From a virus (lineage: Duplodnaviria; Heunggongvirae; Uroviricota; Caudoviricetes), in the IMG/VR virus record IMGVR_UViG_2703718859_000026: DNA of 35,593 nucleotides. The stretch is one strand, 5' to 3'. Positions 7,261-23,991 of the stretch are shown one piece after another. The notes beneath the pieces were generated by a model, which had not been told where the DNA came from, searched no databases, and was given only the letters and a program-made list of their open reading frames with translations. How positions within the stretch are numbered: the stretch's first letter is position 1; every line of letters begins with the position of its first letter. The translations under genes and the position numbers were made by a program.

Positions 7261-7267
7261 AAAAAAA

Positions 7268-8110: not shown

Positions 8111-8116
8111 GTGGAT

Positions 8117-8326: not shown

Positions 8327-8344
8327 TGTTCTGCCGGAGGCTGT

Positions 8345-8638: not shown

Positions 8639-8727
8639 ATGGTGTTGGTCTTAAAGGTGACCGACGGGCTGAGACCCCACTTCTCAGGATGCACCTGTGT
8701 ACTACCAAGCTAGTGCATAAGTTGAGA

Positions 8728-8746
8728 GGGGGGGGGTAAGGGGGGG
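8728..8746. repeat. Homopolymeric G tracts G9-TAA-G7 in intergenic region
   Basis: GAGGGGGGGGGTAAGGGGGGGAG read directly from sequence. Confidence 0.8.
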
Positions 8747-8882
8747 AGTGCCCGTGTGTTAGTGCGAAGCACTGGAACGGGATCTTCCAACAGACGGGTA
8801 CAGAGGTTAGGTAGATCTCGATCTAAAGGGGCATCCCTGAAAAAACGGACGTATCAGCAAACTAGTACATCATGGTTAAAAT

Positions 8883-9251
8883 ATGAGCGCTGAACTGAAA
8901 CTGGTACTAATCAACCTTCTGGAAGAGGAATTCGGACATGGAATGGACAAGGTCACATTCGACTACGTTCTGCAAAAGAAAATCAAATCTCTGGGCTGTG
9001 AGTTGCAACGCTGTTTCACTGTCAGGCTGAAAGGTGATCGCAGGGGATTTATCGATCTTCTGGTTATTTCTCCCGATGGTCAGCGTTGCGCAGTTGAGGT
9101 GGATAACCGATCGCCCCGTCAGCGTTCACTGATGAAAATTCGAGCGCTTCCTGAAGGCATTTCGGGATTTGTTTTTCTCCGTGATGGCAAACATCCACAG
9201 CGTTATATCGCCGATGGTGTGGATGTCATCCGGGCGACCCGGTTTAAGTAA
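8883..9251 (+). CDS. Hypothetical protein, possible small nuclease-like fold
   Basis: 122 aa; segment GFIDLLVISPDGQRCAVEVDNRSP loosely resembles D...E-x-D/K nuclease cores (low confidence). Confidence 0.45.
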   Translation: MSAELKLVLINLLEEEFGHGMDKVTFDYVLQKKIKSLGCELQRCFTVRLKGDRRGFIDLLVISPDGQRCAVEVDNRSPRQRSLMKIRALPEGISGFVFLRDGKHPQRYIADGVDVIRATRFK

Positions 9252-9284
9252 TCACTGTATCAGCCCTGTCATCGGGAGAATACC

Positions 9285-10943
9285 ATGCTGAATATCAAGC
9301 CGAATTTTGCTCAGGAACGTGCGCTGAATATGTTGCGTCATGACTGGAAAACATATCAGTCCTTCATGATGTACATGCCTACAGGGAGTGGTAAAACCGG
9401 CCTGGCGGCGTTCATCACTGCTGGTCTGGTAAGCCGTGGCATGCGCGTTCTGTTTGTCGTTCCTTATACCATTTTGATCAACCAGACAGCACAGCGCTTT
9501 GTTCAGTACGGGCTTTCAGGGGATGAAATCAGCTTTATCTGGCGTGATCATCCCAATAACGACCCGTCACGACTGATTCAGATTTCCAGTGCGGATACGC
9601 TGATTCGCCGTGATTTTCCTCAGAATATCGACCTGCTGATTATTGATGAAGCGCATCTCCGTAAGCGCCGCATCCTCACGGAAATCGAACGACTGGTTGC
9701 AGAGGGAAATGTGAAGGTGATTGGGTTGTCCGGTACACCCTTTTCATCGTTCCTGGGGCGTTATTACCAGCGTCTTCTCAAGCCGACCACTATAGGGGAA
9801 CTGATCCAGCGTGGCGAACTGAGCAATTACGAATTTTATGCGCCCACGAAACCGGATCTGGAAGGTGTAAAAACGAAAGTCTCAATGGAGTACGGCAGGG
9901 ATTACGACGAATCACAACTGGCAGAGATTATGTGCGGCGCGGATCTGGTTGGCGATATTGTCGATAACTGGCTGTGTAACGGAAGGGATTTACCGACAGT
10001 GGCGTTCTGCGTCAATAAAACGCATGCCAGCTTCGTGACCATGCAGTTCAACAAAGCCGGAATTAACGCAGAGGTGATGGTTGCTGAAACGCCACATGAT
10101 GAGCGTCAGTTAATGATCAGTCGTTTTGAAACGGGAGCGACGAAAATCATTGTCAGCGTTGGCGTTCTGGTGGCGGGATTTGACAGTGATGTCCGGTGCA
10201 TCATTTACGCACGCCCGACAAAATCAGAGATTCGCTGGCTTCAGGCGATTGGGAGAGGATTGCGTACAGCGCCAGGCAAGGAGTCATGCCTGATTTTCGA
10301 CCATTCCGGTACGGTTCATCGCCTGGGATTTCCTGAAAATATTGAGTATGACGAACTGCCCGGCAAAAACGACGGGATGCAGGTGTCATCATCACGTGGT
10401 AACGAAATTCGGGAAGAAAAACTGCCGAAAGAATGTCCGGGGTGTCATTTCATGAAACCGGCAGGTGTTTATGTCTGTCCGAAATGCGGATTTAAACCGC
10501 TGGCTGGTGAGGATGTGAACACAGATACCCGCCGCAATATCAGGAAACTCAGCAAGGACGAAAAAATTTACACCAAAAGCGACAAACAGGCCTGGTGGAG
10601 TCAGATCAAATTCTATCAGCGTCAGCGTGCCTCTCTGGGGCGACCGGTCAGCGATGGATGGTGCGCTCACACTTTCCGGGAGAAGTTCGGCGAATGGCCT
10701 GACGGGCTGAGCAGTTTTCCGATGGAAATCACCCCGGAGGTCAGTAATTACATCAGACACAAATTCATCCGGTTTGCCAGAGGGCGTAGCCGGGCAGAGA
10801 AGATGACGGAAAAATCCCCCGAAGCGCTTTCTCTGTCCCTGCTTCATGGTGTCCGGTCTGGGGTGCCGGAAGGCAGTGAGTCGTGGCAGATCATGCAGGC
10901 AAAGCAACAACTTCAGAAAAACAGAAACAGTCTGAGTCAGTAA
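9285..10943 (+). CDS. Superfamily 2 DEAD/DEAH-box helicase with C-terminal zinc ribbon (replication helicase)
   Basis: Walker A MPTGSGKT, motif II IIDEAHL, motif VI QAIGRGLR; C-terminal CPGCHF ... CPKCGF. Confidence 0.85.
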   Translation: MLNIKPNFAQERALNMLRHDWKTYQSFMMYMPTGSGKTGLAAFITAGLVSRGMRVLFVVPYTILINQTAQRFVQYGLSGDEISFIWRDHPNNDPSRLIQISSADTLIRRDFPQNIDLLIIDEAHLRKRRILTEIERLVAEGNVKVIGLSGTPFSSFLGRYYQRLLKPTTIGELIQRGELSNYEFYAPTKPDLEGVKTKVSMEYGRDYDESQLAEIMCGADLVGDIVDNWLCNGRDLPTVAFCVNKTHASFVTMQFNKAGINAEVMVAETPHDERQLMISRFETGATKIIVSVGVLVAGFDSDVRCIIYARPTKSEIRWLQAIGRGLRTAPGKESCLIFDHSGTVHRLGFPENIEYDELPGKNDGMQVSSSRGNEIREEKLPKECPGCHFMKPAGVYVCPKCGFKPLAGEDVNTDTRRNIRKLSKDEKIYTKSDKQAWWSQIKFYQRQRASLGRPVSDGWCAHTFREKFGEWPDGLSSFPMEITPEVSNYIRHKFIRFARGRSRAEKMTEKSPEALSLSLLHGVRSGVPEGSESWQIMQAKQQLQKNRNSLSQ

Positions 10944-10944
10944 G

Positions 10945-11913
10945 ATGAAAACAGCAGAAGCAGCGAAAGGCCACTGGCCTGAAATTTTAAAACATTACGG
11001 ACTGCCGCCAGTCACGGGTAAAAAGCACTTCAAAGGGGAATGTCCGGTTTGTGGTGCCAGAGGTAAGTTCCGTATTGATGACCGTGATGGCACCGGAACG
11101 TGGATCTGTGTTTGTGGTAGCGGTGACGGCATGAAACTGATCGCTCTGACACAAAAAAGAGCGTTTCATGAAATTTGCGCTGAAATAGACCGCATCACGG
11201 GGAATGAATACCGGAGAGATAAACCGCCTGTGATCTGTACGTCGGAAAGCCTGAGATCGCGCATTCAGCGTCGATTTTCAGCGCTCACGTCGCTACAGGG
11301 AACATCTGGTGCTGAATATCTTCGTTCCCGTGGCATATTCAGTCTTCCGGTTGAGGGAGTTCGCTTCAACAGCCAGCAAAATTATAACGGGCGCATGTTC
11401 CAGTCTCTTTATGCCCTGGCGACCGATGACAAGGGAGAACTGTGTTACCTGCATCAGACATTGCTTGATGGAGCTAAAAAAGCAGACATTGGTATCAGCG
11501 CCAGAAGGCTCAAATCTTTACAGGACGATAACTATCTGGACCATGCCCGGTCAGTTGCTATCAGGATGTTTCCGGTAGCCAGTACACTGGGTATAGCTGA
11601 AGGTATCGAAACCGCGTTGTCCGCACATCAGATTTACAAAGTAAATACCTGGGCAACCATTAACAGTGGTTTTATGAAAAAGTTCCGCGTACCGGCGGGA
11701 GTCACCCATCTGATTATTTTTGCCGATCGCGATGAATACAGTGCTACCGGAATGGCTGCGGCCTGTGAATGCGCACATGCAAATCTCCAGGCCCGAAATG
11801 ACATTCAGCGGGTAAGTGTCCGGTGGCCTGATCATGATGATTTCAACAATATGCTCATGAACGGCGATCAGGTTCGGGAACTGGTTTTTTACAGAAAAAA
11901 GGCGGTTGCGTGA
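10945..11913 (+). CDS. DNA primase (zinc-binding N-terminus plus Toprim-like domain)
   Basis: N-terminal GECPVCGARGKFRIDDRDGTGTWICVCG zinc motif; acidic IIFADRDEY segment; translationally coupled to the helicase (2-nt gap). Confidence 0.7.
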   Translation: MKTAEAAKGHWPEILKHYGLPPVTGKKHFKGECPVCGARGKFRIDDRDGTGTWICVCGSGDGMKLIALTQKRAFHEICAEIDRITGNEYRRDKPPVICTSESLRSRIQRRFSALTSLQGTSGAEYLRSRGIFSLPVEGVRFNSQQNYNGRMFQSLYALATDDKGELCYLHQTLLDGAKKADIGISARRLKSLQDDNYLDHARSVAIRMFPVASTLGIAEGIETALSAHQIYKVNTWATINSGFMKKFRVPAGVTHLIIFADRDEYSATGMAAACECAHANLQARNDIQRVSVRWPDHDDFNNMLMNGDQVRELVFYRKKAVA

Positions 11914-12776
11914 TGCGTACGGACAATCAGGTACATAAAGCTTTATTCACTATCCCGACGGCAGCGTACAGCGCCGTTCCGGCAAATATCAAACCTCTGC
12001 CAGAACAAAGGAGGATCACCGGACATAAACAGACTGATGCTTATCTCTGGATTCTGGAGGTTATTCACCTGAACGAGGCCGTACATCTGGACGCAGCCGA
12101 AGCAGCACTGGAGAAACTCAAAATAACGCCGGAAGAAGCGAGTGAACGGTATGGACGTTATTTGCAGGAGATTAATGTTGATCCTTTCCAGATTGCTTTC
12201 GCAACCATAGGCATGGATAACCCGGCGCAGGCGATCAGGAATGCCCGTGAGAATATCAAAAAATCCTCATCAGTCAGGGCCACATTTGGCAGCTATGAGG
12301 CAGCACTCGACGATGTGGAGGCTGAGCGGATAATTCGCACCTCCCCGAAATTTATCGACGATTACTACTGGGGCTGGACTGCGGCAGAGAAAAAAGCCGG
12401 AAGTATTGACGGTGTTCGCTCAAATGAAATTGATGATCAGCGTCGTGCATATGTTGATGGCTATCGTGATGTACTGCCAGAGCCTCATACATTGTCAGAC
12501 GTTGTTCGTGAGTTTATTTACTGGGACTGGCTTTATGAGATGCGCCAGACAGCGGGGAGAGAAACAGGGGACAAATACGGTTTCACAGGTGAACATCATG
12601 AGTCAGTATATGATCGGCAGTTCTGGCTCGAAAATTTGCTGGGAAAAATAAAGCCTGTGACGCGTGATGAAGCGGTTGAAGTGTGTCGCTGGTTTCTGGC
12701 AAGCGGAAAAGATGAGTACATGGAAGACAATGGTTCAGCGGTCATTCTCAATCTGGTTGGGGAGTGTGAGCAATGA
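11910..12776 (+). CDS. Hypothetical protein (nin-region equivalent)
   Basis: 288 aa ORF overlapping the primase stop by 4 nt. Confidence 0.5.
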   Translation: MMRTDNQVHKALFTIPTAAYSAVPANIKPLPEQRRITGHKQTDAYLWILEVIHLNEAVHLDAAEAALEKLKITPEEASERYGRYLQEINVDPFQIAFATIGMDNPAQAIRNARENIKKSSSVRATFGSYEAALDDVEAERIIRTSPKFIDDYYWGWTAAEKKAGSIDGVRSNEIDDQRRAYVDGYRDVLPEPHTLSDVVREFIYWDWLYEMRQTAGRETGDKYGFTGEHHESVYDRQFWLENLLGKIKPVTRDEAVEVCRWFLASGKDEYMEDNGSAVILNLVGECEQ

Positions 12777-12830
12777 AGCCGGAGATATCCAGTAGACATT
12801 TTCCCCCTGAGCATTCAAATCAGAAAAAGT

Positions 12831-13280
12831 ATGGTTACAGCGGAGTACAGAATAATGCGTGATATCCAACAGGTTCTGTCCCGATGGGGTGCATGGGTGG
12901 TAAATAATCATGAGAGTGTGGCATGGTCCGGCGTCGCTGCCGGATTTAAGGGAGTGATCCCATCAAAGGTTAAATCACGGCCTCAGTGTACCGATGATGA
13001 TGCGCTGATTATCAGCAATTGCATGGCGCAACTGAACGTCAACAACAGCGATTTGCATGATTTTCTGTATGATTATTATGTGTTCGGGATGACGCTTATG
13101 GGACTGGGCCGTAAGCATGAGCGCTCTGATTGCTGGGCCGGGCGGGTACTGCAAAAAGCTGAAGGTGTTATTGAGGGGATGTTGATTATGCAGGGAATAA
13201 AACTGGAAATGGACAGATACGTTGAGCGTGAACGATCAAGGGCACAGGTCAGTCAGTTTTCCGGACATACGGGAAATTGA
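12831..13280 (+). CDS. Q: Late-gene antiterminator Q (933W/Stx-phage type)
   Basis: [20 protein letters not shown] ... [14 protein letters not shown] ... [11 protein letters not shown] closely matches remembered Q of Stx phages; probable start ATG about 12855. Confidence 0.8.
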
Positions 13281-13304
13281 AAGCGCGGGGTTTTACTGTA
13301 GAAT
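13277..13304 (+). promoter_or_regulatory. PR'-like late promoter candidate (TTGAAA - 16 nt - TAGAAT)
   Basis: Near-consensus sigma70 -35/-10 pair overlapping the Q stop codon, the expected position of PR'. Confidence 0.4.
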
Positions 13305-13639
13305 GACTGCGGGTGCTTGAGGGGGTCTGCCTCGGGCATGCTGCCGTAAGGCAGACGGAGAAAAGCCCCAGTTAACATTACGTGTCCTGCAAGACGCTTA
13401 ACATTAATCTGAGGCCCAATCTATGTCACACAACCGTAGGTTAGCCTCTTACGTGCCGGAAGGCAAGGAGAAGCAGTCTATGAAGCAGCAAAAGGCGATG
13501 TTAATTCGCCCTGATCGTCATCTGTTTAACCGTCATAGTGACGGCACTGGTAACGAGGAAAGACCTCTGCGAGGTACGAAATGTGTCAGGCATCCTCAAC
13601 GCACCCGTACTTTATTTGTCATATGCTCCGCAAAATGCA

Positions 13640-13671
13640 GGTTGTCGTTGCAACCCGTGCGGTAATTTTTT
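13640..13671 (+). terminator. Weak tR'-like terminator candidate
   Basis: Short stem GGTTG/CAACC followed about 10 nt later by T6; imperfect. Confidence 0.25.
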
Positions 13672-13718
13672 GTGTGCGAGTGCTCAAAAAACGTTGATTT
13701 TCATAAAAGGATGATTTT

Positions 13719-15800
13719 ATGCTGCCAGACCAGCGACCAGCGACCAGCGACCGTAAATCAAGAAAGTCTGTAAAATCTGTTGAACCAGACATTGCCGACC
13801 GGGCTAACAGCTGGCTCAAATCTTATGGACTTGATTACAAACTGGAGCAGGCACCACTTAACAACGAGATCGATAACGCACTGGATGCTTATTTTTCGAA
13901 AAATGGCGGCGCAGGCGGTAATCGTCCCGACGTAAAACTCCTTGTTCAGGACAAATACGGCAAGCAGTATCCCGTTCTCATCGAGTATAAAGGCTACAAG
14001 GACAGGCTTATCAGACTTGGCAGCAACGGTATTATTGAGAACAAAGATGCCAGAAAAGAATGGAATTTTAAAAATATTAATGGATACGCGGTGAATGGCG
14101 CAGTCCATTATGCCAACGCACTTCTTCAGTTCACCAATTACCCTGATATTATTGCTATTGGTATGACCGGCTGGCGCGATGATGATACAGGCGAACTGCA
14201 TCATGAAATCGGCGTGTGGTACGTATCAAAGAATAATTTAGGAGCCGGGCAGAAGGTTGGTGAATTCACCGACTTATCATTCCTTGCTGACAAAAATGTT
14301 GATGGATTTCTCAACAAGATAAAGCTGCTTAATCTTCCTCCCGAAGAACTGGAAAAAATCAAGGCCAGCAAAGAGGAAGAGATAGACACGCGACTTTCCC
14401 GTCTGAATAACGATATTTACCAGAATGAAAAGGGGCTTGGTGAAAGCGATCGTGTTTACCTTGTTGTGGCTACCGTTATTGCAACGTTGGGGATTCCGGG
14501 AAAGTTAGCACCGCTGGATAAAAAAGAACTGACCTCTTCAACGGAGGAGGACTTGCGTGATGGTGATATTATTTTCAGGAAAATAAGGAATTTTTTAAGG
14601 CTGAAAGCTGTTCCTGAAACAAAAAGAGAAATGATTTTGCGCTCGTTGCAAAATACGCTGTGGACTGAAAACATTAACAAACCAGTCAACGGTGAAAGCC
14701 AGTTAAAGCGCGTGTTTGTTAAAGTTGTTGATGATCTTGGGGAGTATTACAAAATCGGACTGACCACCGATTTTACGGGCAAACTGTTTAATGAGATGTA
14801 TCGCTGGCTTGGATTTACGCAGGACAAACTCAATGACGTCGTTCTGACACCACCTTATGTTGCCACATTGCTGGCACGACTCGCCAGAGTAAACAAAGAT
14901 TCCTATGTGTGGGATTTTGCTACAGGTTCTGCGGGATTGCTTGTGGCTGCAATGAATGAAATGCTCATTGACGCCAGAGAAAATATTCACTCACCGAATG
15001 AACTACAACTTAAGGAAGCGCAAATCAAGGCTGAACAGCTTCTTGGCCTTGAGGTGTTATCCAGTATTTATATGCTGGCCATCCTGAATATGATTTTGAT
15101 GGGGGATGGTAGCTCGAATATCCTCAATAAAGACTCGCTGGCCGATTTTGACGGCAAGTATGGATTTGGGAAAACAGGAGAAAAATTCCCTGCGGACGCA
15201 TTTATTCTCAATCCTCCGTATTCAGCTAAAGGTAACGGCATGATTTTCGTGCAGAAGGCGCTGTCGATGATGGATAAAGGCTATGCTGCAGTGATTATCC
15301 AGAGTTCAGCCGGCACAGGAAAGGCTACGGAGTACAACAAAAAAATACTCAAGGAAAATACCTTGCTGGCAAGCATCAAAATGCCTGCGGATCTGTTTAT
15401 TGGTAAATCAAGCGTTCAGACGTACATTTACGTTTTTCAGGTAAAAATTCCGCATAACGCGAAACAGGCTGTTAAGTTTATCGACTTTTCCAATGACGGC
15501 TATGCTCGCTCTAATCGCAAAAAGGCAAGAAACAATCTTGTTGATGCCGATCGTGCAAAAGAGCGTTATCAGGAGGTTGTGGATCTGGTTCACTTCGGGA
15601 AAGGTTGCCTTAATATCTTTACGGAGGATGAATATTTTGAGGGAACAATCGATCCTGATAGTGGTGAGGACTGGAATCAGACCAGGCCAGTAGATACCAG
15701 ACCGACACTGGAGGATTTTAAAAAGACGGTTGGCGACTATCTTGCGTGGGAGGTGTCAAAACTTCTTCAGGGGCGTGATGCGTCAGAAAAAAAGCAGTAA
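13719..15800 (+). CDS. Restriction-modification enzyme subunit: N-terminal PD-(D/E)xK-like nuclease motif fused to gamma-class N6-adenine DNA methyltransferase (BcgI-A / MmeI-like)
   Basis: 693 aa; NRPD71-x17-E89-Y-K91; motif I VWDFATGSAGLLVAA then motif IV FILNPPYSAKG in gamma order; AT-rich relative to flanking phage genes. Confidence 0.7.
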   Translation: MLPDQRPATSDRKSRKSVKSVEPDIADRANSWLKSYGLDYKLEQAPLNNEIDNALDAYFSKNGGAGGNRPDVKLLVQDKYGKQYPVLIEYKGYKDRLIRLGSNGIIENKDARKEWNFKNINGYAVNGAVHYANALLQFTNYPDIIAIGMTGWRDDDTGELHHEIGVWYVSKNNLGAGQKVGEFTDLSFLADKNVDGFLNKIKLLNLPPEELEKIKASKEEEIDTRLSRLNNDIYQNEKGLGESDRVYLVVATVIATLGIPGKLAPLDKKELTSSTEEDLRDGDIIFRKIRNFLRLKAVPETKREMILRSLQNTLWTENINKPVNGESQLKRVFVKVVDDLGEYYKIGLTTDFTGKLFNEMYRWLGFTQDKLNDVVLTPPYVATLLARLARVNKDSYVWDFATGSAGLLVAAMNEMLIDARENIHSPNELQLKEAQIKAEQLLGLEVLSSIYMLAILNMILMGDGSSNILNKDSLADFDGKYGFGKTGEKFPADAFILNPPYSAKGNGMIFVQKALSMMDKGYAAVIIQSSAGTGKATEYNKKILKENTLLASIKMPADLFIGKSSVQTYIYVFQVKIPHNAKQAVKFIDFSNDGYARSNRKKARNNLVDADRAKERYQEVVDLVHFGKGCLNIFTEDEYFEGTIDPDSGEDWNQTRPVDTRPTLEDFKKTVGDYLAWEVSKLLQGRDASEKKQ

Positions 15801-15834
15801 ACTCCCGTCTTGCAGAGCTTGAGCGGGAGTTTAT
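15788..15834 (+). promoter_or_regulatory. Candidate -1 programmed frameshift signal: A AAA AAG heptamer plus 10-bp stem-loop (alternatively an intrinsic terminator)
   Basis: Heptamer at the last two Lys codons of the methyltransferase ORF; stem TAAACTCCCG / CGGGAGTTTA with 16-nt loop begins about 3 nt downstream; the -1 frame is open into the next ORF. Confidence 0.4.
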
Positions 15835-15874
15835 TAAATCTGGTGGTAAATGGGAAGAATACACAATCGAAAGA

Positions 15875-16402
15875 TTGTTCAGTATTCAGACACCTAAAAA
15901 GAAATTTAATGCCAATAAATTAACATTTAATGGCAACTATCCTTATGTTGCCAGAGGAAGTAACAATAACGGCATAAAAGGATATATAGATGAAGATGAA
16001 TTATATCTCAACCCGGGGAATACAATTAGCTTTGGTCAGGATACTGCGACCATGTTCTATCAGGAAAACGCATATTTCACAGGTGATAAAATAAAGATTT
16101 TTTCTCTCAGACATGGAGAGTTAAATTCGCGAATTGCTGTTTTTCTTATATCAGCAATGAAAAAATCTTTTTCAACGTTTAGTTGGGGGAGTAGCTCTTT
16201 TAATGAGAATGTTCTCAATAAGGTAAAGATAAATATACCTACGTTTAATAATGTTCCTGCATATAATTATATGGTAAAGTATATAGAAGAGCTGGAAGCG
16301 GCCCATATAGAAGAGCTGGAAGCGGCCCATATAGAAGAGCTGGAAGCTTACTTGCTGGTTAGCGGACTCGCGGACTCGCGGACTCGCGGACTCGCGGACT
16401 GA
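15875..16402 (+). CDS. Specificity (S/B) subunit, first target-recognition domain plus repeat linker; no ATG start (track start is TTG)
   Basis: 175 aa; TRD-like segment LTFNGNYPYVARGSNNNGIKGYID; C-terminal IEELEAAH repeats; frame open upstream back to within the methyltransferase 3' end. Confidence 0.6.
   Translation: MFSIQTPKKKFNANKLTFNGNYPYVARGSNNNGIKGYIDEDELYLNPGNTISFGQDTATMFYQENAYFTGDKIKIFSLRHGELNSRIAVFLISAMKKSFSTFSWGSSSFNENVLNKVKINIPTFNNVPAYNYMVKYIEELEAAHIEELEAAHIEELEAYLLVSGLADSRTRGLAD
16281..16348 (+). repeat. 24-bp in-frame tandem repeat, about 2.8 copies (ATATAGAAGAGCTGGAAGCGGCCC), encoding (IEELEAAH)n
   Basis: Visible directly in DNA and in the translated ORF (YIEELEAAHIEELEAAHIEELEA). 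Confidence 0.9.
16362..16400 (+). repeat. 8-bp tandem repeat GCGGACTC, about 4.9 copies, at the junction of the two TRD ORFs
   Basis: AGCGGACTCGCGGACTCGCGGACTCGCGGACTCGCGGACTGA; unit length not a multiple of 3. Confidence 0.9.
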
Positions 16403-16464
16403 TAAGCTATGAGCTTACACCACAGGAATATAACGCGATTGAGCTATTAAATAGCAATAATCTT

Positions 16465-16986
16465 ATGTGGGGCACTTATAACCTCAAAAAGTTATTTGGC
16501 CCCGCAATAAGAGGTAAGCGTCTGAAAAACGCAGATCGTATACCCGGCTCCTTGCCTTTTGTTACTGCGGGTGAAGGCAATGAAGGTATTTCTGCATTTA
16601 TCAGTAATGATGTTGTTGTATTCCCTGAAAATACCATTACGATAGATATGTTTGGCTCCGCAAAATACAGAAATTATGAGTATGGTGCAGATGACCATGT
16701 GGCAGTTGTTCATACAGAATTCTTTGACAGAAATGCCGTTATTTTCATAACAGCATCAATTCATAAGTCTTCTTGTACCGGAAAGTTCAACTACGGGAGA
16801 AATTTCTATGCAAAAGATGCCGACGAGTTAATGGTATCTTTGCCGTCAAAAGATAATAACCCTGATTATTCTTTCATGGAGACGCTAATTCTAGCAGTAC
16901 ATAAACTGGTCATCAAAGATGTTGTCCAGTACACTGATAAAAAGCTGGTAGCGTACAGGCAGATTACATCTGAGAAGGTTGTTTAG
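16465..16986 (+). CDS. Specificity (S/B) subunit, second target-recognition domain, in a different frame from the first
   Basis: 173 aa; TRD-like segment RIPGSLPFVTAGEGNEGISAFIS paralogous to the first TRD; frame open upstream through the 8-bp repeats; no Shine-Dalgarno seen. Confidence 0.6.
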   Translation: MWGTYNLKKLFGPAIRGKRLKNADRIPGSLPFVTAGEGNEGISAFISNDVVVFPENTITIDMFGSAKYRNYEYGADDHVAVVHTEFFDRNAVIFITASIHKSSCTGKFNYGRNFYAKDADELMVSLPSKDNNPDYSFMETLILAVHKLVIKDVVQYTDKKLVAYRQITSEKVV

Positions 16987-17108
16987 TGCAAATCCCCACC
17001 TGACAGGGTGGGGAATGGTCAGGTTATCGTGCCCTGATGCAGAAAAACAGTTTACAATCGTAAAAATCATCATATCATGACAAAAGTGGTTACATTGCCA
17101 CGCTGCTT

Positions 17109-17133
17109 AACCCGCCGATGCGCGGGTTTTTTG
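17109..17133 (+). terminator. Rho-independent terminator
   Basis: Stem AACCCGC/GCGGGTT, 6-nt loop, T6 tail. Confidence 0.6.
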
Positions 17134-17312
17134 TATCCAGAATCCTGTAAGTTATACGGAAAGTACACAGAAAGGAAGGTGCGACCGCAATTAATAACAA
17201 AATCTTAAAAATCGCATATGGCACTATTAGTTTTCTAAATATTGTATATTTTAAGTATTGCAGGATGACCCTGTAACGAAGTTTGCGTAACAGCATTTTG
17301 CTCTACGAGTTT

Positions 17313-17342
17313 GCCAGCCTCCCCCAGTGGCTGGCTTTTTTT
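17313..17342 (+). terminator. Rho-independent terminator
   Basis: Stem GCCAGCC/GGCTGGC, 9-nt loop, T7 tail. Confidence 0.65.
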
Positions 17343-17583
17343 GTATCCGTTCAACAGGAATGTTACATACCTCACAATTAAGTCTGTTGAATGTTGTCTG
17401 CCCGGATGAGAATTTGTTAGAAAAAAACTGCATGGTGAATCCCCCTGTGCGGAGGGGCGACTGGTGAATGGTATGATCTCTTTGATGATCGTAAGCGAGA
17501 ATACGCGGGTTTGGTGGCACCAGGCCGAACTCACCGGGAGGCACCCGGCACCATGCAGTATACAGAGATTAGGCATATATCAG

Positions 17584-17608
17584 GGCCCCTCATAGCAGGG
17601 GCCTTTTT
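17584..17608 (+). terminator. Rho-independent terminator
   Basis: Stem GGCCCCT/AGGGGCC, 6-nt loop, T5 tail. Confidence 0.6.
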
Positions 17609-17825
17609 ACATGCAAAAAAAAGCCGCCCCGGGAAGAGCGGTTGGCAAGAAGAAAAGCAATATGAACAATTAATTAACGCTGCGAATAATACCTTACAGT
17701 AATCACCCTGCGCAACTGTGAGGAGTGTATTTCTTTTTTGCGGGTGGTTGTCTTTTTCCCTTGTGTTTCGGGACTTCCGCTCACTCCTTATCTTATTCAG
17801 TACATTATCCCGGCCGGGAGGATTC

Positions 17826-19865
17826 ATGGCATTTAAACACTATGACGTGGTCAGGGCGGCGTCGCCGTCAGACCTTGCGGAACGAATAACTCAAAAACTG
17901 AAGGAAGGGTGGCAGCCTTATGGTAGTGCGCTGATTTCGACAGCTGGTTATGGTGCGGAGTTCATCCAGCCAGTTGTGAGTGAGGGGAGCATCTCATCAC
18001 CAGAGGAGCCAGGCAACCGTCCGACGACCTCAGCGCCTTCTGTTGCGCCAGAATATTACTATGTGATCGCGCTTGCTGGTCAGTCCAATGGTATGTCATA
18101 CGGTGAGGGACTGCCATTACCGGATACATTCGACAGCCCTGATCCACGTATTAAACAGTTAGCGCGTCGCAGTACGGTGACACCGGGCGGCGCTGCATGT
18201 ACCTATAACGATATTATTCCGGCAGATCACTGTCTCCATGATGTACAGGATATGAGCAGCCTTCATCATCCGAACGCCGATCTGTCAAAAGGTCAGTATG
18301 GCTGCGTCGGACAGGGTTTACATATCGCCAAAAAATTACTGGCGTTTATCCCGAAAAATGCCGGAATCCTTCTGGTACCTTGCTGTCGTGGAGGGTCAGC
18401 ATTTACTTCCGGCGCTGAGGGGGCATTCAGTGAATCGTCAGGAGCGACGGCCGAATCATCCCTGTGGGGTGTCGGCAAGCCGCTGTACAACGATCTGCTT
18501 ACCCGTACAAAAGCCGCGCTGGATAAAAACCCCAAAAACGTCCTGTTATCCGTGGTCTGGATGCTGGGAGAGTTTGATCTGAAGTCAGCAACATACGCAC
18601 AGCACCCGCAATTATTCCTGAACATGGTGAATCAGTTCCGCGCCGATCTCAGCGCATATTCTTCACAGTGCACCGGAGGCAATGCATCATTTGTTCCCTG
18701 GATTTGCGGCGATACCACCTATCTCTGGAAACAAAAATATACCTCTCAGTACCCGGTGGTTTACGGTGCATATCAGAACAAAGAAGCGCAAAAAATTTAT
18801 TTTGTGCCCCTGATGACCGATGAGAAAGGTACTAACACGCCAACAAACCTGCCTGCCGAAGATCCTGATCTGGCAGAAGCCGGTTATTACGGTGCTGCAT
18901 CCCGCAGTAATGGAAACTGGACCTCTTCAGATCGCGCCACGCATTTCAGTTCATGGGCCCGTCGCGGCATTGTTTCTGACCGTCTGGCAACGGCGATCCT
19001 GATGCATGCAGGGAAGACAGCCGCCTTCCTGAAAGGCACACCCGCACCGTTCAGCGTGGTCGTAGCGCCTCCCGCCACGGCAGGTTCAGACAGCGCCACC
19101 ACGGAAAGCCCGCAGCCCTCCACATCTGCACCTCAGCCGGGCGCAGGCACACAGCCATCACCGGAAGTTCCACCGGCAACTGAAACACCGGCAAGAACAA
19201 CTGCCGTCGCTTATCGTGCAGATACACAGGAAGGGAAACTGAAAGAACAGGGCTGGACGGGGGCAGACGGAAAAGCCTCTGTCGTAGATGATTCTGCTGC
19301 TGAGAGCGGTAAAGCCATGCGAGTGGAAAAAGTCCAGGGGCAACAAACAGCCTGGAAAATTGCCCACGATGTGCCTGCAAGTAAAGCAGCTGAATTACTT
19401 CAGAGAGGCGGTGAAATTGCCTTCCGTTTCAAAATTCCCGAAGGTGTTCAGCTGGCAACAAACCGCTTCGCCATGGCCCTGTACTGGCCTGTTTCTCAGC
19501 TACCTGAAAACGTTGTTCTGGAAGGCAGCGCAGGAAACGATATGCTGGCCGCCTTCTTCATCCAGAGCGACAGCGCAAACCTGAATCTGATGCAGCACAA
19601 ACAACAGAATGCAAAACTGGGAACCTTCGGGGCATTTAATCATAACTGGCACAACGTGGTGTTCAGGTTTGCCGGCAATAACAGCATCAGCGTGACACCG
19701 GTCATCAACGGTCAGACCCAGGCGGCCTTTAATCTGGCGAAATGCCCGGCGGCAGGACTGGATAACGACAAGCTGTTACTCACTGACATTACCAGTAACC
19801 AGGATACCTACCCGGTTCTGATTGAGCACGTAACAGTGGCAATCAATAACAGCAACGCCGCATAA
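17826..19865 (+). CDS. nanS-p: Prophage-encoded 9-O-acetyl sialic acid esterase NanS-p (DUF1737 N-terminus plus SGNH/SASA hydrolase domain)
   Basis: MAFKHYDVVRAASPSDLAERITQKLKEGWQPYG N-terminus and GQSN motif (YYYVIALAGQSNGMSYGEG); GGGAGG Shine-Dalgarno before ATG 17826; track start 17718 is an upstream non-ATG extension. Confidence 0.8.
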   Translation: MAFKHYDVVRAASPSDLAERITQKLKEGWQPYGSALISTAGYGAEFIQPVVSEGSISSPEEPGNRPTTSAPSVAPEYYYVIALAGQSNGMSYGEGLPLPDTFDSPDPRIKQLARRSTVTPGGAACTYNDIIPADHCLHDVQDMSSLHHPNADLSKGQYGCVGQGLHIAKKLLAFIPKNAGILLVPCCRGGSAFTSGAEGAFSESSGATAESSLWGVGKPLYNDLLTRTKAALDKNPKNVLLSVVWMLGEFDLKSATYAQHPQLFLNMVNQFRADLSAYSSQCTGGNASFVPWICGDTTYLWKQKYTSQYPVVYGAYQNKEAQKIYFVPLMTDEKGTNTPTNLPAEDPDLAEAGYYGAASRSNGNWTSSDRATHFSSWARRGIVSDRLATAILMHAGKTAAFLKGTPAPFSVVVAPPATAGSDSATTESPQPSTSAPQPGAGTQPSPEVPPATETPARTTAVAYRADTQEGKLKEQGWTGADGKASVVDDSAAESGKAMRVEKVQGQQTAWKIAHDVPASKAAELLQRGGEIAFRFKIPEGVQLATNRFAMALYWPVSQLPENVVLEGSAGNDMLAAFFIQSDSANLNLMQHKQQNAKLGTFGAFNHNWHNVVFRFAGNNSISVTPVINGQTQAAFNLAKCPAAGLDNDKLLLTDITSNQDTYPVLIEHVTVAINNSNAA

Positions 19866-20010: not shown

Positions 20011-20193
20011 ATGTCATTCATTCATCAAATCATGCTGTATTTCTGTACGGCGGTCTGTGTGCTGTATCTTCTTTCGGGTGGGTACAGGGCTGTGCGCGAT
20101 TTCTGGTGCAGGCAGATTGATAAAAGGGCCGCTGAGAAAATCAGCGCCAGTCAGTCAGCCGGAAGCAAACCCGAAGAGCCCGTTACTCCTTAA
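20011..20193 (+). CDS. Hypothetical small membrane protein
   Basis: About 60 aa from ATG MSFIHQ; one hydrophobic segment; low confidence. Confidence 0.3.
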   Translation: MSFIHQIMLYFCTAVCVLYLLSGGYRAVRDFWCRQIDKRAAEKISASQSAGSKPEEPVTP

Positions 20194-20218: not shown

Positions 20219-20491
20219 ATGTCAGAAATCACATCCCTGGTCACTGCAGAGGCAGTGAAGGAAGTCCTGCGCTCTGAAGAAGTCCGGAGCGCACTGAAAC
20301 AGAAACTCCGCCAGAATCTTGAGGCGCGTCTTGATGCAGAAGTTGATGCCATTCTGGATGAGCTGCTTGGTGTACAGGCAGAGCCACCGACTGAAGCGGG
20401 AGATACCACCGCAGAGAGCGGTGAAGTTCAGCCTGAATCACCGGTCGCCGATGCGACTGAACCTCAACCCGAATCGGTCATGATGTTGTAA
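20219..20491 (+). CDS. Hypothetical acidic protein
   Basis: 90 aa from ATG MSEITSL; amphipathic N-terminus, acidic Pro/Glu-rich tail. Confidence 0.45.
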
Positions 20492-20567: not shown

Positions 20568-20783
20568 ATGTACCAGATGGAAAAAATCACAACAGGTGTG
20601 TCATACACCACGTCAGCGGTGGGAACGGGCTACTGGTTCCTGCAGTTGCTGGACAGGGTTTCCCCGTCTCAGTGGGCGGCAATAGGCGTGCTGGGGAGTC
20701 TGCTGTTTGGTCTGCTGACGTACCTGACGAACCTGTATTTCAAAATCAGAGAGGACAGGCGTAAGGCGGCACGGGGAGAGTAA
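20568..20783 (+). CDS. S: Holin S (Stx-phage type) with dual-start motif
   Basis: 71 aa, M1-Y-Q-M4-E-K dual start, two transmembrane segments, charged C-terminus; matches remembered 933W-family S. Confidence 0.85.
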
Positions 20784-20787
20784 GCTG

Positions 20788-21321
20788 ATGAGCAGGAAAC
20801 TCCGCTATGGTTTATCGGCTGCCGTTCTGGCGCTGATTGCCGCAGGTGCTTCTGCGCCTGAAATCCTCGACCAGTTTCTGGATGAAAAGGAAGGTAACCA
20901 CACCACGGCATACCGTGATGGTGCGGGTATCTGGACCATCTGCCGTGGAGCCACCCGGGTGGATGGTAAGCCTGTGATTCCTGGCATGAAGCTGTCGAAG
21001 GAAAAATGCGACCATGTTAACGCCATTGAACGTGATAAGGCGCTGGCATGGGTGGAGAAAAACATCAGAGTGCCGCTGACCGACCCCCAGAAAGCGGGGA
21101 TAGCGTCATTCTGTCCGTATAACATTGGCCCCGGTAAGTGTTTCCCGTCGACGTTTTATAAACGAATTAATGCAGGTGATCGAAAAGGTGCCTGCGAAGC
21201 GATTCGCTGGTGGATTAAGGACGGTGGCAGAGACTGCCGTATCCGCTCAAATAATTGCTACGGTCAGGTATCCCGGCGAGATCAGGAAAGTGCGCTGGCG
21301 TGCTGGGGAATTGACAGATAA
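20788..21321 (+). CDS. R: Endolysin R (lysozyme, signal-anchor-release type)
   Basis: 177 aa; N-terminal hydrophobic SAR-like segment (LSAAVLALIAAGASAPEIL); GH24-like core (GNHTTAYRDGAGIWTICRG). Confidence 0.88.
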   Translation: MSRKLRYGLSAAVLALIAAGASAPEILDQFLDEKEGNHTTAYRDGAGIWTICRGATRVDGKPVIPGMKLSKEKCDHVNAIERDKALAWVEKNIRVPLTDPQKAGIASFCPYNIGPGKCFPSTFYKRINAGDRKGACEAIRWWIKDGGRDCRIRSNNCYGQVSRRDQESALACWGIDR

Positions 21322-21410
21322 GCAGAATATTTTGCTGAAAAATGACATTGGCCAACGCGGGCGGATAACACGAAATCCTGCGAACTGGCAAAACCTAAGT
21401 GAATAAAAGT

Positions 21411-21450
21411 AAAAACCCCGGTTGTTGGCAGCAAGCGGGGTTTGGTGTTT
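21411..21450 (+). terminator. Terminator-like hairpin between R and Rz
   Basis: Stem ACCCCG/CGGGGT with about 15-nt loop followed by U-rich TTGGTGTTTTCT. Confidence 0.4.
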
Positions 21451-21649
21451 TCTGACCTTGAATAAGGCAAGGGAGAAATTATGGGTAGGGAGGTACTTTC
21501 CCTGTGAGGAAGTATAAAAGATTCTTTCTGAGGTTGTCCATTATGAAAGGCATTGAAGTGGAGAGCCAGTCTGGATTTAACAAGAGCGGCAGCTTTTGCC
21601 ATTCGTATTGTGGCCATTGCTGTTCTGGTCTGGGCAATCCGTTGGTGGT

Positions 21650-22120
21650 GATATGAACCGTGTTCTGTGCGTGGTCATCATTGTCCTGCTGGTGGCCTGT
21701 GGTGCGCTTAGTCTGGGGCTGAATCATTACCGTGTTCACGCCATCATCTACAAAGAGCAGCGCGATAAAAAAGCCAGTGAGCTGGAGCTGGCGAACGCGA
21801 CAATTACTGATATGCAGATACGCCAGCGTGATGTCGCTGCACTTGATGCCAGATACTCGAGGGAATTAGCCGATGCGAGAGCTGAAAATGAAACTCTGCG
21901 TGCTGATGTTGCCGCTGGTCGTAAGCGCCTGCGGATCAACGCCACCTGCTCCGGTACCGTGCGTGAAGCCACCGGCACCTCCGGCGTGGATAATGCAACC
22001 AGGCCCCGACTGGCAGACACCGCTGAACGGGATTATTTCATCCTCAGAGAACGGTTGATGACAATGCAGAAGCAGCTGGAAGGGGCACAGGAATATATCC
22101 GCACTCAGTGCCTGAATTAA
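21650..22120 (+). CDS. Rz: Spanin inner-membrane subunit Rz
   Basis: N-terminal TM segment, then coiled-coil region closely matching lambda Rz (DMQIRQRDVAALDARYSRELADARAENE ... RDYFILRERLMTMQKQLEG). Confidence 0.85.
   Translation, partial: DMNRVLCVVIIVLLVACGALSLGLNHYRVHAIIYKEQRDKKASELELANATITDMQIRQRDVAALDARYSRELADARAENETLRADVAAGRKRLRINATCSGTVREATGTSGVDNATRPRLADTAERDYFILRERLMTMQKQLEGAQEYIRTQCLN
21888..22058 (+). CDS. Rz1: Spanin outer-membrane lipoprotein Rz1, embedded in Rz in a different frame
   Basis: MKLCVLMLPLVVSAC lipobox followed by a Pro-rich peptide, entirely inside Rz. Confidence 0.7.
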   Translation: MKLCVLMLPLVVSACGSTPPAPVPCVKPPAPPAWIMQPGPDWQTPLNGIISSSENG

Positions 22121-22296: not shown

Positions 22297-22887
22297 ATGA
22301 ACTATCCGACGATTGTTAACGGTATTGATTTCCGCGATCTTGTTTTTGTGACAGGCAACGAGCCGGTGACGGATACCCGAAAGGTTGCCGTAGCATTTGG
22401 CAAAGAACACAAAGATGTATTGCGGAAAACAAGAGCCGTTGTTCAACAATGCTCAAAAGAATTTGCAGAGCGCAATTTTGCGCTTTGCTATGAAAACAAT
22501 GAGTTACAGAACGGTAAACCCCAGCCCATATATCGAATGACAAAAGACGGTTGGACGATGTTGGTATTTGGTTTTACGGGGAAAGCTGCTATGACCTTTA
22601 AGGAAGCGTACATTCAGGCTTTCAACTGGATGGCTGAGCTTATTCAGCAAGGTCTGGCGAATCTGGAGGCGGAGCGCAACGCTGTAATGCTGGAGTACAT
22701 GAAAGAGAAAGATGTCGCCAGTATGTCAGGTCGTTTGCTCAATCGCTGGGGCAGGGTGAAGAAGCCTCAGTTGCTGGCAAGGCTGGACAGGCTGGAGCAG
22801 CAGGGGCAGATTGGTTACCCGGATTTGATAAAGGCATTTCAGCCTGACATAGCCATGCGCCGTATCGTCGCCGTATTCCCGCATTAA
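22297..22887 (+). CDS. rha: Rha-family phage regulatory protein
   Basis: N-terminal LVFVTGNEPVTDTRKVAVAFGKEHKDVLRK is the Rha signature as recalled. Confidence 0.8.
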   Translation: MNYPTIVNGIDFRDLVFVTGNEPVTDTRKVAVAFGKEHKDVLRKTRAVVQQCSKEFAERNFALCYENNELQNGKPQPIYRMTKDGWTMLVFGFTGKAAMTFKEAYIQAFNWMAELIQQGLANLEAERNAVMLEYMKEKDVASMSGRLLNRWGRVKKPQLLARLDRLEQQGQIGYPDLIKAFQPDIAMRRIVAVFPH

Positions 22888-23139
22888 CAGAGACCGCAGC
22901 CACCTTATCTGCGTGAGTGTGCGGGGATAATCAAAAACGATGCACACCGGGTTTTCTCATTTTTCACGAGATGGGAGCGATTTCCCGCGAAGCCGCCTGT
23001 CCGGTGCGGTGGTGGAAGAAACCGGATAAAACAACCGCATTGTGCAAATATCGATCAAATATGGTGCTGCTGTGTGAAATCTGAAAAATCACAGCGGTCA
23101 TTATGCATCAGTTTTTAACACAGGACGTCAGAACGTGAC

Positions 23140-23991
23140 ATGGCAAAGCTGGACTGGAAAAAGCTGGAGCAGGCATTCCGACGCGAACATGCCAGAACTG
23201 GCATAAAACTTCAGGACTGGTGTCGTAAGAACAATATCAGTTATGGCACGGCTCGCCGGTACATAAAATTGCGCAAAAACCCCCCCATAAATACAGAGGA
23301 AAGTGCGCAGAAAAATGCGCAAAAAAGTGCGCAAATTGATGATCAAAAAAGCGCACAAAAAAATGTGCAGGGATCCGATGACGAATCCAGTAATGACAAG
23401 GCTTACAGCGATGATGGCAGTGGTGAAAAATGCGCAAAAAACTGCGCAAATTCGGCAGAAACGAAACGCAACAGCAGATCGGGCAATCCTCACCCCGTTG
23501 CCCGGTTTAGCGACCGTAACACCCACGCCGTAAGACACCGTGGATATGCGAAGTATCTTGAGGCAGATAACCTCATGGATGATGCGTCCGACATGGTGCT
23601 GTTCGATGAACTGGTGTTCACCCGAGCCCGCGCACTTTCAGTAACTAAGGCACTTAAAGGGATGTTCGCCGACCTGGAAGAGGCAACTGACGTGGAAACC
23701 CGCGTTGCTCTTTACGACAAAATACTCAAAGCTGAACAGGCCCTTGACCGGAATATTGCCCGTATCGAGTCAATTGAACGCTCATTGCTGACGCTGGATG
23801 TCCTGGCTGAGACAGCACCAAAACTTCGTGCTGACCGGGAAAGAATCAACGCCGCCAGAGATAAACTCAGAGCGGAAACCGATATTCTGACCAGCCAGCG
23901 CCGGGGTGTTATTACGCCAGTCAGTGACATCGTGTCATCGCTGCATGAAATGAGTAATTCGGGGAGACTGGATGACATTCCGGAAGAATAA
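23140..23991 (+). CDS. Terminase small subunit (putative)
   Basis: N-terminal HTH-like segment (KLQDWCRKNNISYGTARRYIKL), low-complexity AQK repeats, coiled-coil C-terminus; immediately upstream of and overlapping terL. Confidence 0.55.
   Translation: MAKLDWKKLEQAFRREHARTGIKLQDWCRKNNISYGTARRYIKLRKNPPINTEESAQKNAQKSAQIDDQKSAQKNVQGSDDESSNDKAYSDDGSGEKCAKNCANSAETKRNSRSGNPHPVARFSDRNTHAVRHRGYAKYLEADNLMDDASDMVLFDELVFTRARALSVTKALKGMFADLEEATDVETRVALYDKILKAEQALDRNIARIESIERSLLTLDVLAETAPKLRADRERINAARDKLRAETDILTSQRRGVITPVSDIVSSLHEMSNSGRLDDIPEE
23304..23448 (+). repeat. Phased 12-bp repeats containing TGCGCA inside the putative terS gene
   Basis: TGCGCA at about 23304, 23316, 23328, 23431, 23443 with variants GCGCAC/TGTGCA at about 23351-23370; encodes (S/N)AQK peptide repeats. 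Confidence 0.6.

Follow-up and report, generated by a model that had tools for sequence, protein, structure and literature searches.

A candidate repeat-switched restriction-modification cassette with a putative -1 frameshift site in a Shiga toxin-type prophage

We analyzed the Caudoviricetes record IMGVR_UViG_2703718859_000026 of IMG/VR (hereinafter, the window, that is, the entire stretch of 35,593 nucleotides), in which a cassette with a restriction-modification (R-M) module lies between the late antiterminator gene Q and the lysis genes. The cassette consists of a hok/Gef toxin pseudogene, a gene for a nuclease-methyltransferase subunit of 693 amino acids (aa) (RM; 13719-15800, plus strand), and a specificity gene (S) that is split into two halves (15794-16402 and 16465-16986, plus strand). 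The R-M module carries two tandem repeats that could act as expression switches and, at the RM/S junction, a putative -1 frameshift site through which S is likely to be made. The region as a whole, including the cassette, the repeat switches, and the frameshift site, is best explained, with good probability, as the Q-to-lysis segment of a short-tailed Shiga toxin (Stx)-type prophage with an empty slot for tRNA and stx genes. The stx-less late architecture is ordinary, and the cassette is a variant of repeat-switched R-M and of the -1 frameshift site.

A putative -1 frameshift site at the RM/S junction

The first half of S is in the -1 frame relative to RM, and the junction of the two genes harbors a putative frameshift cassette (15788-15835, plus strand). 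The zero frame of RM ends with ..GA[A AAA AAG] CAG TAA, with the slippery heptamer A_AAA_AAG (15788-15794) just ahead of the RM stop codon (15798-15800). A stem-loop spans positions 15796-15835; in its GC core, 15801-15807 pairs with 15824-15830 (-20.3 kcal/mol, z=-4.9). The sequence features by which -1 frameshift sites are recognized are found here: a heptamer of the X_XXY_YYZ form in the zero frame, a stable structure after a short spacer, and a downstream open reading frame (ORF) in the -1 frame. A second Escherichia coli allele encodes a different RM C-terminus, with the heptamer G_GGA_AAG right before the stop and no start codon. These two heptamers are identical to those of well-known frameshift sites, namely dnaX (A_AAA_AAG with a stem-loop) and phage lambda G/GT (G_GGA_AAG), and the downstream stem-loop is likewise located a few nucleotides away. 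Unlike in dnaX and G/GT, the stop codon of the upstream ORF adjoins the heptamer, and frameshifting would fuse two restriction enzyme subunits.

The arrangement is widely conserved. A heptamer within 3 nt of the stop followed, a few nucleotides on, by a long stem-loop was found at 19 distinct junctions, with protein identity down to 28%, in Neisseria, Providencia, Methylophilaceae, and viral contigs. The seven relatives that lack the heptamer also lack the stem; in these, an ATG or GTG is located at the stop codon or up to 90 nt downstream of it. Across the alignment, 92.6% of the stem cells were paired compared to at most 51% in slid controls, and three stem pairs showed compensatory changes (10 cells), a level that none of 500 shuffles reached. 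At 12 of the 19 junctions, the window included, the conserved W motif is not preceded by any ATG, GTG, or TTG; in the window, the first canonical start, TTG 15875, comes only after the N-terminal motif of S, KWEEYTIERLF. The codons in the loop maintain the peptide [ED][KR]L.. with differing leucine codons, which argues for translation in the -1 frame. Furthermore, four cluster representatives are natural in-frame RM-S fusions that are collinear with the predicted trans-frame product and gapless at the junction. Given the heptamer with the covarying stem, the missing S start, the conserved loop peptide, and the natural fusions, S is likely made as an RM-S fusion by -1 frameshifting. The predicted fusion is 894 aa long in the window because the octanucleotide repeat within S (see below) is out of frame; with that repeat in frame, it would comprise about 1,095 aa.

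Some of the junctions weigh against this interpretation. Seven of the 19 have some canonical start, and two relatives (L136 and L134) have a usable ATG at or near the junction, so that S may also be produced separately. Under the corresponding alternative, RM and S are separate proteins as in BcgI, S is translated through coupling or from a non-canonical or downstream start, and the GGGAAAR heptamer and the stem serve coupling, mRNA stability, or protein coding. The ATG of L136 overlaps the stop (ATGA), that of L134 is in frame a few codons downstream, many members have an ATA after the heptamer, and BcgI-class enzymes have been described as two proteins. However, at that position, GTA or GCA stands in the E. 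coli alleles, in which the motif is not preceded by any ATG, GTG, or TTG; the identity of the heptamer changes (A_AAA_AAG, G_GGA_AAR, A_AAA_AAA), yet it stays slippery; the geometry of spacer and stem fits that of known -1 frameshift sites; and the natural in-frame fusions occur at the same junction. We therefore consider separate synthesis of S a serious but unlikely alternative to frameshifting.

No earlier report of recoding in R-M systems was found in the literature searched, the coverage of which is incomplete. If confirmed, the frameshift would be possibly the first case of recoding in such systems and would suggest a testable solution to a puzzle raised previously, the subunit ratio of single-chain Type IIB enzymes (PMC3874165).

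The cassette probably separates Q from its late promoter

We aligned the window with three references: phage 933W, an Stx1c phage, and the Stx2b prophage of E. coli 04-00955. In a preliminary description of the window, the region had been interpreted as a late region of the Stx-phage type, with a Q gene of the 933W type, a promoter at the Q stop codon, and R-M cargo in the place of stxAB. The alignment bears out the kinship with Stx phages: positions 17043-17341 are 94% identical to 933W, and 22900-35593 are 95-98% identical to Stx phages. Cargo also lies between Q and the terminators, as described (13719-16986). The replacement of stx by this cargo is not borne out, given that the stx slot is separate and empty.

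The Q gene (12855-13280, plus strand; the longest ORF starts at 12831) encodes a Phage_antitermQ protein (PF06530, E=2.5e-45) that is 63% identical to Q of 933W, 67% to Q of the Stx1c phage, and 64-67% to Q across sequenced Stx phages. It is a distinct allele of the Q933/H-19B clade, so that, with these identities, the 933W type designation is valid at the level of the clade and not at that of the allele. The DNA homology to Q933 stops at 13232, and the final 16 codons form a new tail. The Q tail that is missing after 13232 reappears at 17043 as a Q933-type 3' remnant (approximately the eight last codons, ..QKNSLQS*), just before pR'. This remnant, pR', qut, and the first tR' terminator form a block (17043-17135, plus strand) with 94% identity to the annotated 933W positions, 3.8 kb downstream of Q. 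The promoter (TTTACA-N16-TATCAT) has its -35 element at 17051-17056 and its -10 element at 17073-17078, qut is ACATTGCC (17092-17099), and the terminator (17109-17135, plus strand) consists of a stem-loop and a U-run. This second promoter-like site (17051-17078), with a score equal to that of the one at the Q stop, had been overlooked in the preliminary description.

The right junction of the cassette at 17043 is common to all 12 relatives compared. This Q allele was detected in 29 of 5,426 complete E. coli genomes, as was the R-M module (29 of 5,426), and Q, hok, and R-M were always linked in the genomes compared. Because the homology stops at 13232 and the tail returns at 17043, the junction is constant, and the Q allele is linked to R-M, the simplest reading is that the hok-RM-S cassette was inserted into the 3' end of Q, parting it from its own late promoter.

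The promoter-like site at the Q stop codon (P1, TTGAAA-N16-TAGAAT; 13277-13304, plus strand) is present as described and matches 10 of 12 consensus positions. Such sites are not enriched in the region (16 observed compared to 12.6 +/- 3.6 expected), and the significance of P1 rests on its position rather than on its score. Homology to a hokD cassette located elsewhere (locus L013, which belongs to the nin region of an O111:H- prophage) starts at 13298, and therefore, the TAGAAT -10 hexamer and the transcribed leader are hok sequence. We infer that P1 is probably a hybrid hok promoter that also feeds the R-M genes in the lysogen, with Q acting at 17051-17099.

The hok/Gef cassette itself (13298-13612, plus strand; hok ATG at 13480) is a pseudogene. 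Relative to loci L001, L002, and L138, it contains a 1-nt insertion and a deletion of about 92 nt after 13580, so that the intact hok ORF expected of a hok/sok type I toxin-antitoxin system is lacking in the window; hok is intact in the other allele group (loci L006-L012). The native hok terminator has been replaced, and as a consequence, hok probably shares a transcript with the R-M genes. We considered and rejected an intrinsic terminator between hok and RM: the sole hairpin before the R-M start is weak (z=-0.9).

The preliminary description took P1 for PR', with the R-M genes in the stx moron position as the first genes of the Q-antiterminated late operon. In favor of this view, P1 is a good sigma-70 match over the Q stop, like pR' in 933W; its -35 and -10 hexamers are retained in a 90%-identical Q allele; Q, hok, and R-M are always linked; and no strong terminator intervenes between P1 and the R-M genes. 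However, the -10 hexamer and the whole initial transcribed region of P1 are 95% identical to the hokD cassette that adjoins no Q gene, which makes a qut or pause element at P1 unlikely. Furthermore, a complete 933W-type pR'-qut-tR' block with the Q 3' remnant lies downstream in every relative, and stx, where it is carried, follows this block instead of replacing R-M. The identification of P1 as PR' thus appears rather improbable. The R-M genes would then probably be outside the Q-dependent late operon, and their proposed co-induction with the late genes from PR' is doubtful. Two other routes are plausible: in the lysogen, the cassette could be expressed from a signal of its own, and upon induction, by read-through from the early operon.

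The empty stx slot and its right boundary

The second terminator of the 933W tR' block (17313-17343, plus strand; stem-loop and U-run) marks the left edge of the stx slot. A third terminator (17582-17609, plus strand) follows the right slot boundary, in agreement with the three terminators noted before; their free energies range from -12 to -16 kcal/mol and their z-scores from -2.4 to -3.9. Up to the second terminator, the segment 17043-17341 corresponds to the Q 3' end, pR', qut, and two terminators of 933W. Homology to 933W then resumes at 17372, 46 bp past stxB2. Only about 17-30 bp (17342-17371) are left between the second terminator and the right boundary. In 933W, the slot contains 1,790 bp with pT, ileZ-argN-argO, and stxA2B2, and it is about 1.8 kb long in the Stx2b prophage and 1.76 kb in the Stx1c phage. 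Because homology resumes right after tR' and the conserved boundary adjoins it, the slot is empty in the window. In agreement with the preliminary description, tblastn with six Stx subunits (StxA and StxB of Stx2b, Stx1c, and Stx2a) yielded no match in the window better than E=0.47, ARAGORN predicted no tRNA in the whole window, and blastn with the 933W tRNA block (ileZ-argN-argO) returned nothing.

The right slot boundary (ATGTTA.AT.CCTCACAATT.AG..), with the third terminator behind it (17359-17609, plus strand), is 97% identical to the Stx1c phage downstream of stx1c and comes after stxB, tRNA genes, or tR' in all of the relatives compared. The slot has at least four fill states: relatives carry tRNA genes and stx, stx, tRNA genes only, or neither. 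The cassette occurs together with stx2b and tRNA genes in E. coli 04-00955, with stx1c in strain 2013C-3033, with stx2 in the OkiPb strains, with tRNA genes only in O111:H8 strains (L006-L008 10732-10981 and equivalents; a methylase remnant and three tRNA genes, without stx), and with nothing in the slot in the G strains, PhiR12_3, and the window. Replacement of stx by R-M was accordingly rejected: the R-M genes are upstream of pR' and coexist with stx in relatives. We also rejected a simple origin of the window by deletion from the Stx2b prophage. The two are 99.9% identical up to 17341, but the right flank from 17359 is 97% identical to the Stx1c phage, compared to only 73-76% for the Stx2b prophage.

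A conserved element, ATGTTAAAT.CCTCACAATTCAG..AGTTGA..GTTGTCTG (17359-17410 in the window), is found at the right slot edge in every relative compared, with two copies flanking a small ORF downstream of stx1c (L004 5797-5896 and 6070-6170). This element may be a recombination hotspot for cargo exchange.

Two tandem repeats as candidate phase switches

The first repeat is located at the start of RM. Two ATG codons in different frames, 13711 and 13719 (13711-13721, plus strand), precede a heptanucleotide tract, (GACCAGC)n, that is present in 3.6 copies (13728-13752, plus strand), 9 nt after and in frame with ATG 13719. Because the two ATGs are in different frames, two of the three phases of the tract give a full-length RM ORF: when the tract length modulo 3 equals 1, the ORF starts at ATG 13719, when it equals 2, at ATG 13711, and when it equals 0, there is none. 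All three phases were observed among genomes. The copy number is 16.6 in 04-00955, 80.6 in strain 2018-166, and 56-99 in other complete genomes; in IMG/VR contigs, it ranges from 3.6 to about 100, and in relatives, from 9 to about 100. The database RM proteins start with MLPDQRPATS... or MILCCQTSDQRPATS..., followed by 1 to 11 or more heptapeptide repeats; the RM homologs of Neisseria and Providencia have no such repeats.

Tract length varies between otherwise identical strains. Strains G1/2, G6/7, and G8 have tracts of 650, 582, and 694 nt, and three O111:H8 strains have tracts of 582, 393, and 407 nt, in each trio within a flank of about 3.5 kb that is 100% identical; the differences within the two trios amount to 14-189 nt.

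The second repeat separates the two halves of S. The first half (15794-16402) encodes target recognition domain (TRD) 1 and the central helices (Pfam Methylase_S, 3e-20; PADLOC Specificity_II), and the second half (16465-16986) encodes TRD2 and the C-terminal helix, with residues 2-150 matching positions 181-332 of 341 in Specificity_II. The two halves thus match the two halves of this 341-position Type II specificity model, and in strain 2018-166, they are contiguous. The linker between the TRDs contains an octanucleotide repeat, (GCGGACTC)n, in 4.9 copies (16362-16400, plus strand), which is out of frame and splits S. Copy numbers of 3.9, 4.9, 5.9, 6.9, 7.9, 9.9, 16.9, and 26.9 were observed; S is annotated as one gene of 375 aa where the copy number is 3.9 or 6.9, and it is split where this number is 4.9 or 5.9. 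The central helix of S contains, in addition, a 24-bp in-frame repeat (IEELEAAH) in 2.8 copies (16281-16347, plus strand), with 0-4 core matches in relatives. By analogy with EcoR124I and EcoR124II, this repeat could change the spacer length of the recognition sequence. TRD1 and TRD2 have been swapped independently among genomes.

Sequence hallmarks of a phase-variable R-M system are present: a 7-nt tract in RM and an 8-nt tract in S, neither a multiple of 3, length variation between otherwise identical strains, and both in-frame and out-of-frame states. Several points weigh against functional switching. The 3.6-copy tract may be too short to switch, and RM in the window is in frame on a short, probably stable tract. 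Assembled lengths can err: one tract includes a poly-C artifact and two contain imperfect units, and assemblies have been found to under-report tract length (Atack et al., PMC5909438). The window has an out-of-frame S and a hok pseudogene, and a sibling has IS1 inserted between RM and S, so that the cassette could be decaying in the window.

In the corresponding alternative explanation, the repeats differ because of noise in assembly or neutral slippage, and pseudogenization, not regulation, accounts for the split S, the dead hok, and the lack of an S start; the IS1 insertion, the sequencing artifacts in some tracts, and the collapse of such tracts in short-read assemblies are all compatible with it. 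Against general decay, the 2-kb RM ORF has no other frameshift or stop in any locus examined, and all interruptions are confined to the two repeats; the tracts are near-perfect across 56-99 units in complete genomes; the slippery heptamer, the stem-loop, and the linker peptide are retained across genera; and a phage genome record, PhiR12_3, carries the R-M module. As a general account of the cassette, this alternative is very unlikely. The sibling with IS1 is strain 2015C-3121 (L003 5703-6400), and its heptanucleotide tract contains a long poly-C run that is probably a sequencing artifact.

The records contain several annotation errors, among them Type I names assigned by the Prokaryotic Genome Annotation Pipeline (PGAP) and internal starts for RM and S. 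The antisense strand of the tract is annotated by PGAP as a YXWGXW repeat-containing or hypothetical protein (L001 4110-4724, L003 2919-3551, L006 6463-7080; in the window, 13717-13792, minus strand). We rejected a real YXWGXW gene: the ORF is an antisense reading of (GACCAGC)n, and because its length tracks the repeat number, it is an annotation artifact. In the PhiR12_3 record, the ORF antisense to the tract is labeled as an EmrB/QacA transporter.

The same unit is found elsewhere. In Pectobacterium carotovorum DSM 30168, (GACCAGC)17 directly follows an ATG (L023 6525-6643; ..DEFYTQIVDIEREMQHYRDHFKGKVVYCNCDD..), in a gene that may encode an unrelated DNA methyltransferase. Together with the Type III mod gene found in STEC (Shiga toxin-producing E. 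coli) and discussed below, this suggests that methyltransferase genes of Enterobacterales repeatedly carry the unit at their 5' ends. A scan of species-representative genomes for four heptanucleotide units hit mostly unrelated loci of Planctomycetota, Gemmatimonadota, and Actinobacteria, none of which, among those examined, contained an RM homolog.

RM as a probable BcgI-like nuclease-methyltransferase

RM is predicted to comprise an N-terminal PD-(D/E)XK nuclease fused to a gamma-class N6-adenine methyltransferase. It matches the PADLOC model REase_MTase_IIG over its full length (E=5e-234, residues 17-684); a second PADLOC model of fused nuclease-methyltransferases is 637 positions long. The Pfam matches are N6_Mtase (5e-21) and, weakly, VRR_NUC (6e-4). 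The residues P70-D71 and E89-Y90-K91 (PD..EXK) and the motifs DFATGSAG and NPPY are invariant in 23 homologs. The AlphaFold model of RM is poor (mean predicted local distance difference test score of 59.9), in which D71 precedes a strand of the N-terminal domain and E89/K91 are located in the strand after it. Foldseek matches with low TM-scores include BsaXI, a Type IIB enzyme; with such a model, these are weak support only. Along with the quality of the model, a count against the assignment is that no PDB sequence matched the RM protein or the 23-sequence profile, even at E<=1.

BcgI-class enzymes cleave DNA on either side of a bipartite site; in these enzymes, RM and S are combined at a 2:1 ratio, and both subunits are needed for cutting and methylation (PMC3874165). 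In the PhiR12_3 record, the RM homolog is named BcgI alpha chain-like. Overall, the evidence from sequence comparison points to a BcgI-like Type IIB R-M enzyme with a separate S, and not to a Type I system. PGAP names the two genes HsdM and HsdS in all records, starting both at internal codons, and the Pfam matches to N6_Mtase and Methylase_S conform to these names, which, with no HsdR, would imply a methyltransferase-only, Type I-like system. This reading, the least probable of all, founders on the score of RM with the hsdM equivalog TIGR00497 (36 bits compared to a cut-off of 242.75), the 350-aa N-terminal extension with the invariant PD..EXK motif placed as described in the model, and the full-length match to the fused nuclease-methyltransferase model. 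An orphan Type I methyltransferase was likewise rejected on the strength of the sub-threshold hsdM score and the nuclease domain. No hsdR was annotated in any of the loci fetched.

RM homologs with 72-73% identity are present in Neisseria species. A helicase-primase prophage of Providencia alcalifaciens (L135 1394-6933) encodes an RM-S homolog with 72% identity, the slippery heptamer G_GGA_AAA, and no canonical S start. There, RM-S is located between a lambda-type Q gene (PF03589) and holin genes, the equivalent position in an unrelated phage.

Proposed mode of action

Together, these observations suggest how the cassette might work. It would be transcribed from the hybrid hok promoter at the Q stop and, upon induction, also by read-through from the early operon, with Q acting 3.8 kb downstream, at the 933W-type pR', to turn on nanS-p, the lysis genes, and the structural genes. 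The enzyme presumably needs both RM (nuclease and N6-methyladenine methyltransferase) and S (two TRDs). The first switch would be slippage of (GACCAGC)n behind the two out-of-phase ATGs, leaving RM in frame in two of the three phases, and the second switch would be slippage of (GCGGACTC)n between the TRDs, yielding an S that is either full-length or truncated after TRD1. S would be reached mainly via -1 ribosomal frameshifting near the RM stop, producing free RM along with the RM-S fusion. In the window, RM is in frame, whereas S is not, and hok is dead.

More broadly, a widespread BcgI-like family may use frameshifting at the RM stop to make free RM and the RM-S fusion, with the E. coli prophages adding the heptanucleotide on/off switch and the octanucleotide toggle between RM-TRD1-TRD2 and RM-TRD1. 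We put this forward as a tentative proposal, to which we would give somewhat less than an even chance. If it is correct, the frameshift would fix the subunit ratio and link the two-subunit (BcgI) and single-chain (AloI/CjeI) enzymes, and the octanucleotide repeat would toggle between an asymmetric target (RM-TRD1-TRD2) and the palindromic target of a HaeIV-like homodimer (RM-TRD1). The STEC host would gain a restriction barrier and a methylome that switch at random, encoded immediately upstream of the stx slot.

Relationship to known systems

The RM polypeptide, with its nuclease and gamma-class N6-methyladenine methyltransferase, the two-TRD S, and the lack of a translocase resemble the Type IIB enzymes BcgI, BsaXI, and NgoAVIII. 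The cassette differs from BcgI-like enzymes in the presence of two frame-shifting repeats, in the apparent synthesis of S through -1 frameshifting, and in being prophage-borne. By architecture, the only aspect compared, the predicted RM-TRD1-TRD2 product corresponds to AloI, CjeI, PpiI, and TstI, and RM-TRD1, made with the octanucleotide repeat out of frame, corresponds to HaeIV. Unlike in these single-chain Type IIB enzymes, the fusion would arise beside free RM from one mRNA.

Repeat-switched R-M is known from host-adapted pathogens. N. gonorrhoeae NgoAV is a repeat-switched R-M system, and as in the Type IIG gene cj0031 of C. jejuni and in Type I hsdM/hsdS genes with repeats, the repeats within the ORFs would switch expression, with truncation of hsdS changing specificity. 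The tracts in these systems are mostly mono- to pentanucleotide repeats. In contrast, the Type IIB cassette of E. coli prophages has hepta- and octanucleotide tracts that reach about 100 units. No report of this Type IIB system was found in the literature searched.

The closest parallel with respect to the first repeat is M.Eco131I, the Type III mod of STEC DG131/3 (target GCCATC), for which heterogeneity of tract length has been demonstrated experimentally (Atack et al. 2018, PMC5909438) and which has been called the first phase-variable methyltransferase in pathogenic E. coli (PMC5909438). In a subset of STEC, the same heptanucleotide (CAGCGAC, a rotation of GACCAGC) is found at the 5' end of this methyltransferase gene. 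M.Eco131I differs in being a Type III enzyme with a different ribosome-binding site and without a second repeat or a nuclease fusion. The Type IIB enzyme described here would join this Type III mod, so far the sole repeat-switched methyltransferase reported in pathogenic E. coli. Because the cassette is borne on mobile Stx-type phages, in some strains beside stx2b, stx1c, or stx2, it could modulate phage and plasmid uptake as well as the methylome in STEC.

Among phages, the window resembles the short-tailed Stx phages (933W, phiSTEC1589-Stx1c, and the Stx2b prophage of 04-00955) in the order of Q, pR'-qut-tR', nanS-p, DUF1378, DUF826, S-R-Rz/Rz1, terminase, and portal. It differs from them in lacking tRNA and stx genes, in a Q that is only 63-67% identical, in the hok-RM-S cassette between Q and pR', and in a helicase-primase early arm for which no close relative was found among sequenced phages (at most 77% identity).

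Other genes of the window

Downstream of the slot, nanS-p (17826-19865, plus strand) encodes a sialate O-acetylesterase of the SASA family with DUF1737, SASA, and DUF6645 domains. It is followed by genes for DUF1378 (20011-20193) and DUF826 (20219-20491) proteins, which precede the lysis cassette (20568-22120). The latter consists of the holin gene S (20568-20783), the lysozyme gene R (20788-21321), Rz (21653-22120), and the embedded Rz1 (21888-22058), all on the plus strand. The nanS-p and S-R-Rz-Rz1 assignments made previously are supported by Pfam domains and by a lipobox in Rz1.

The structural arm (22900-35593) is 95-98% identical to Stx1c, Stx1a, and Stx2 short-tailed phages. The left arm (1-12800), which has no nin region, includes genes for an integrase (45-1334, minus strand), a CI-like repressor (7346-8053, minus strand), a DEAD-box helicase (9285-10943), and a toprim primase (10945-11913). 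A regulator gene with a Rha/ORF11CD3 domain (22297-22887) is situated between Rz and the terminase genes; in strain 2018-166, whose prophage is near-identical, this gene carries a frameshift annotation.

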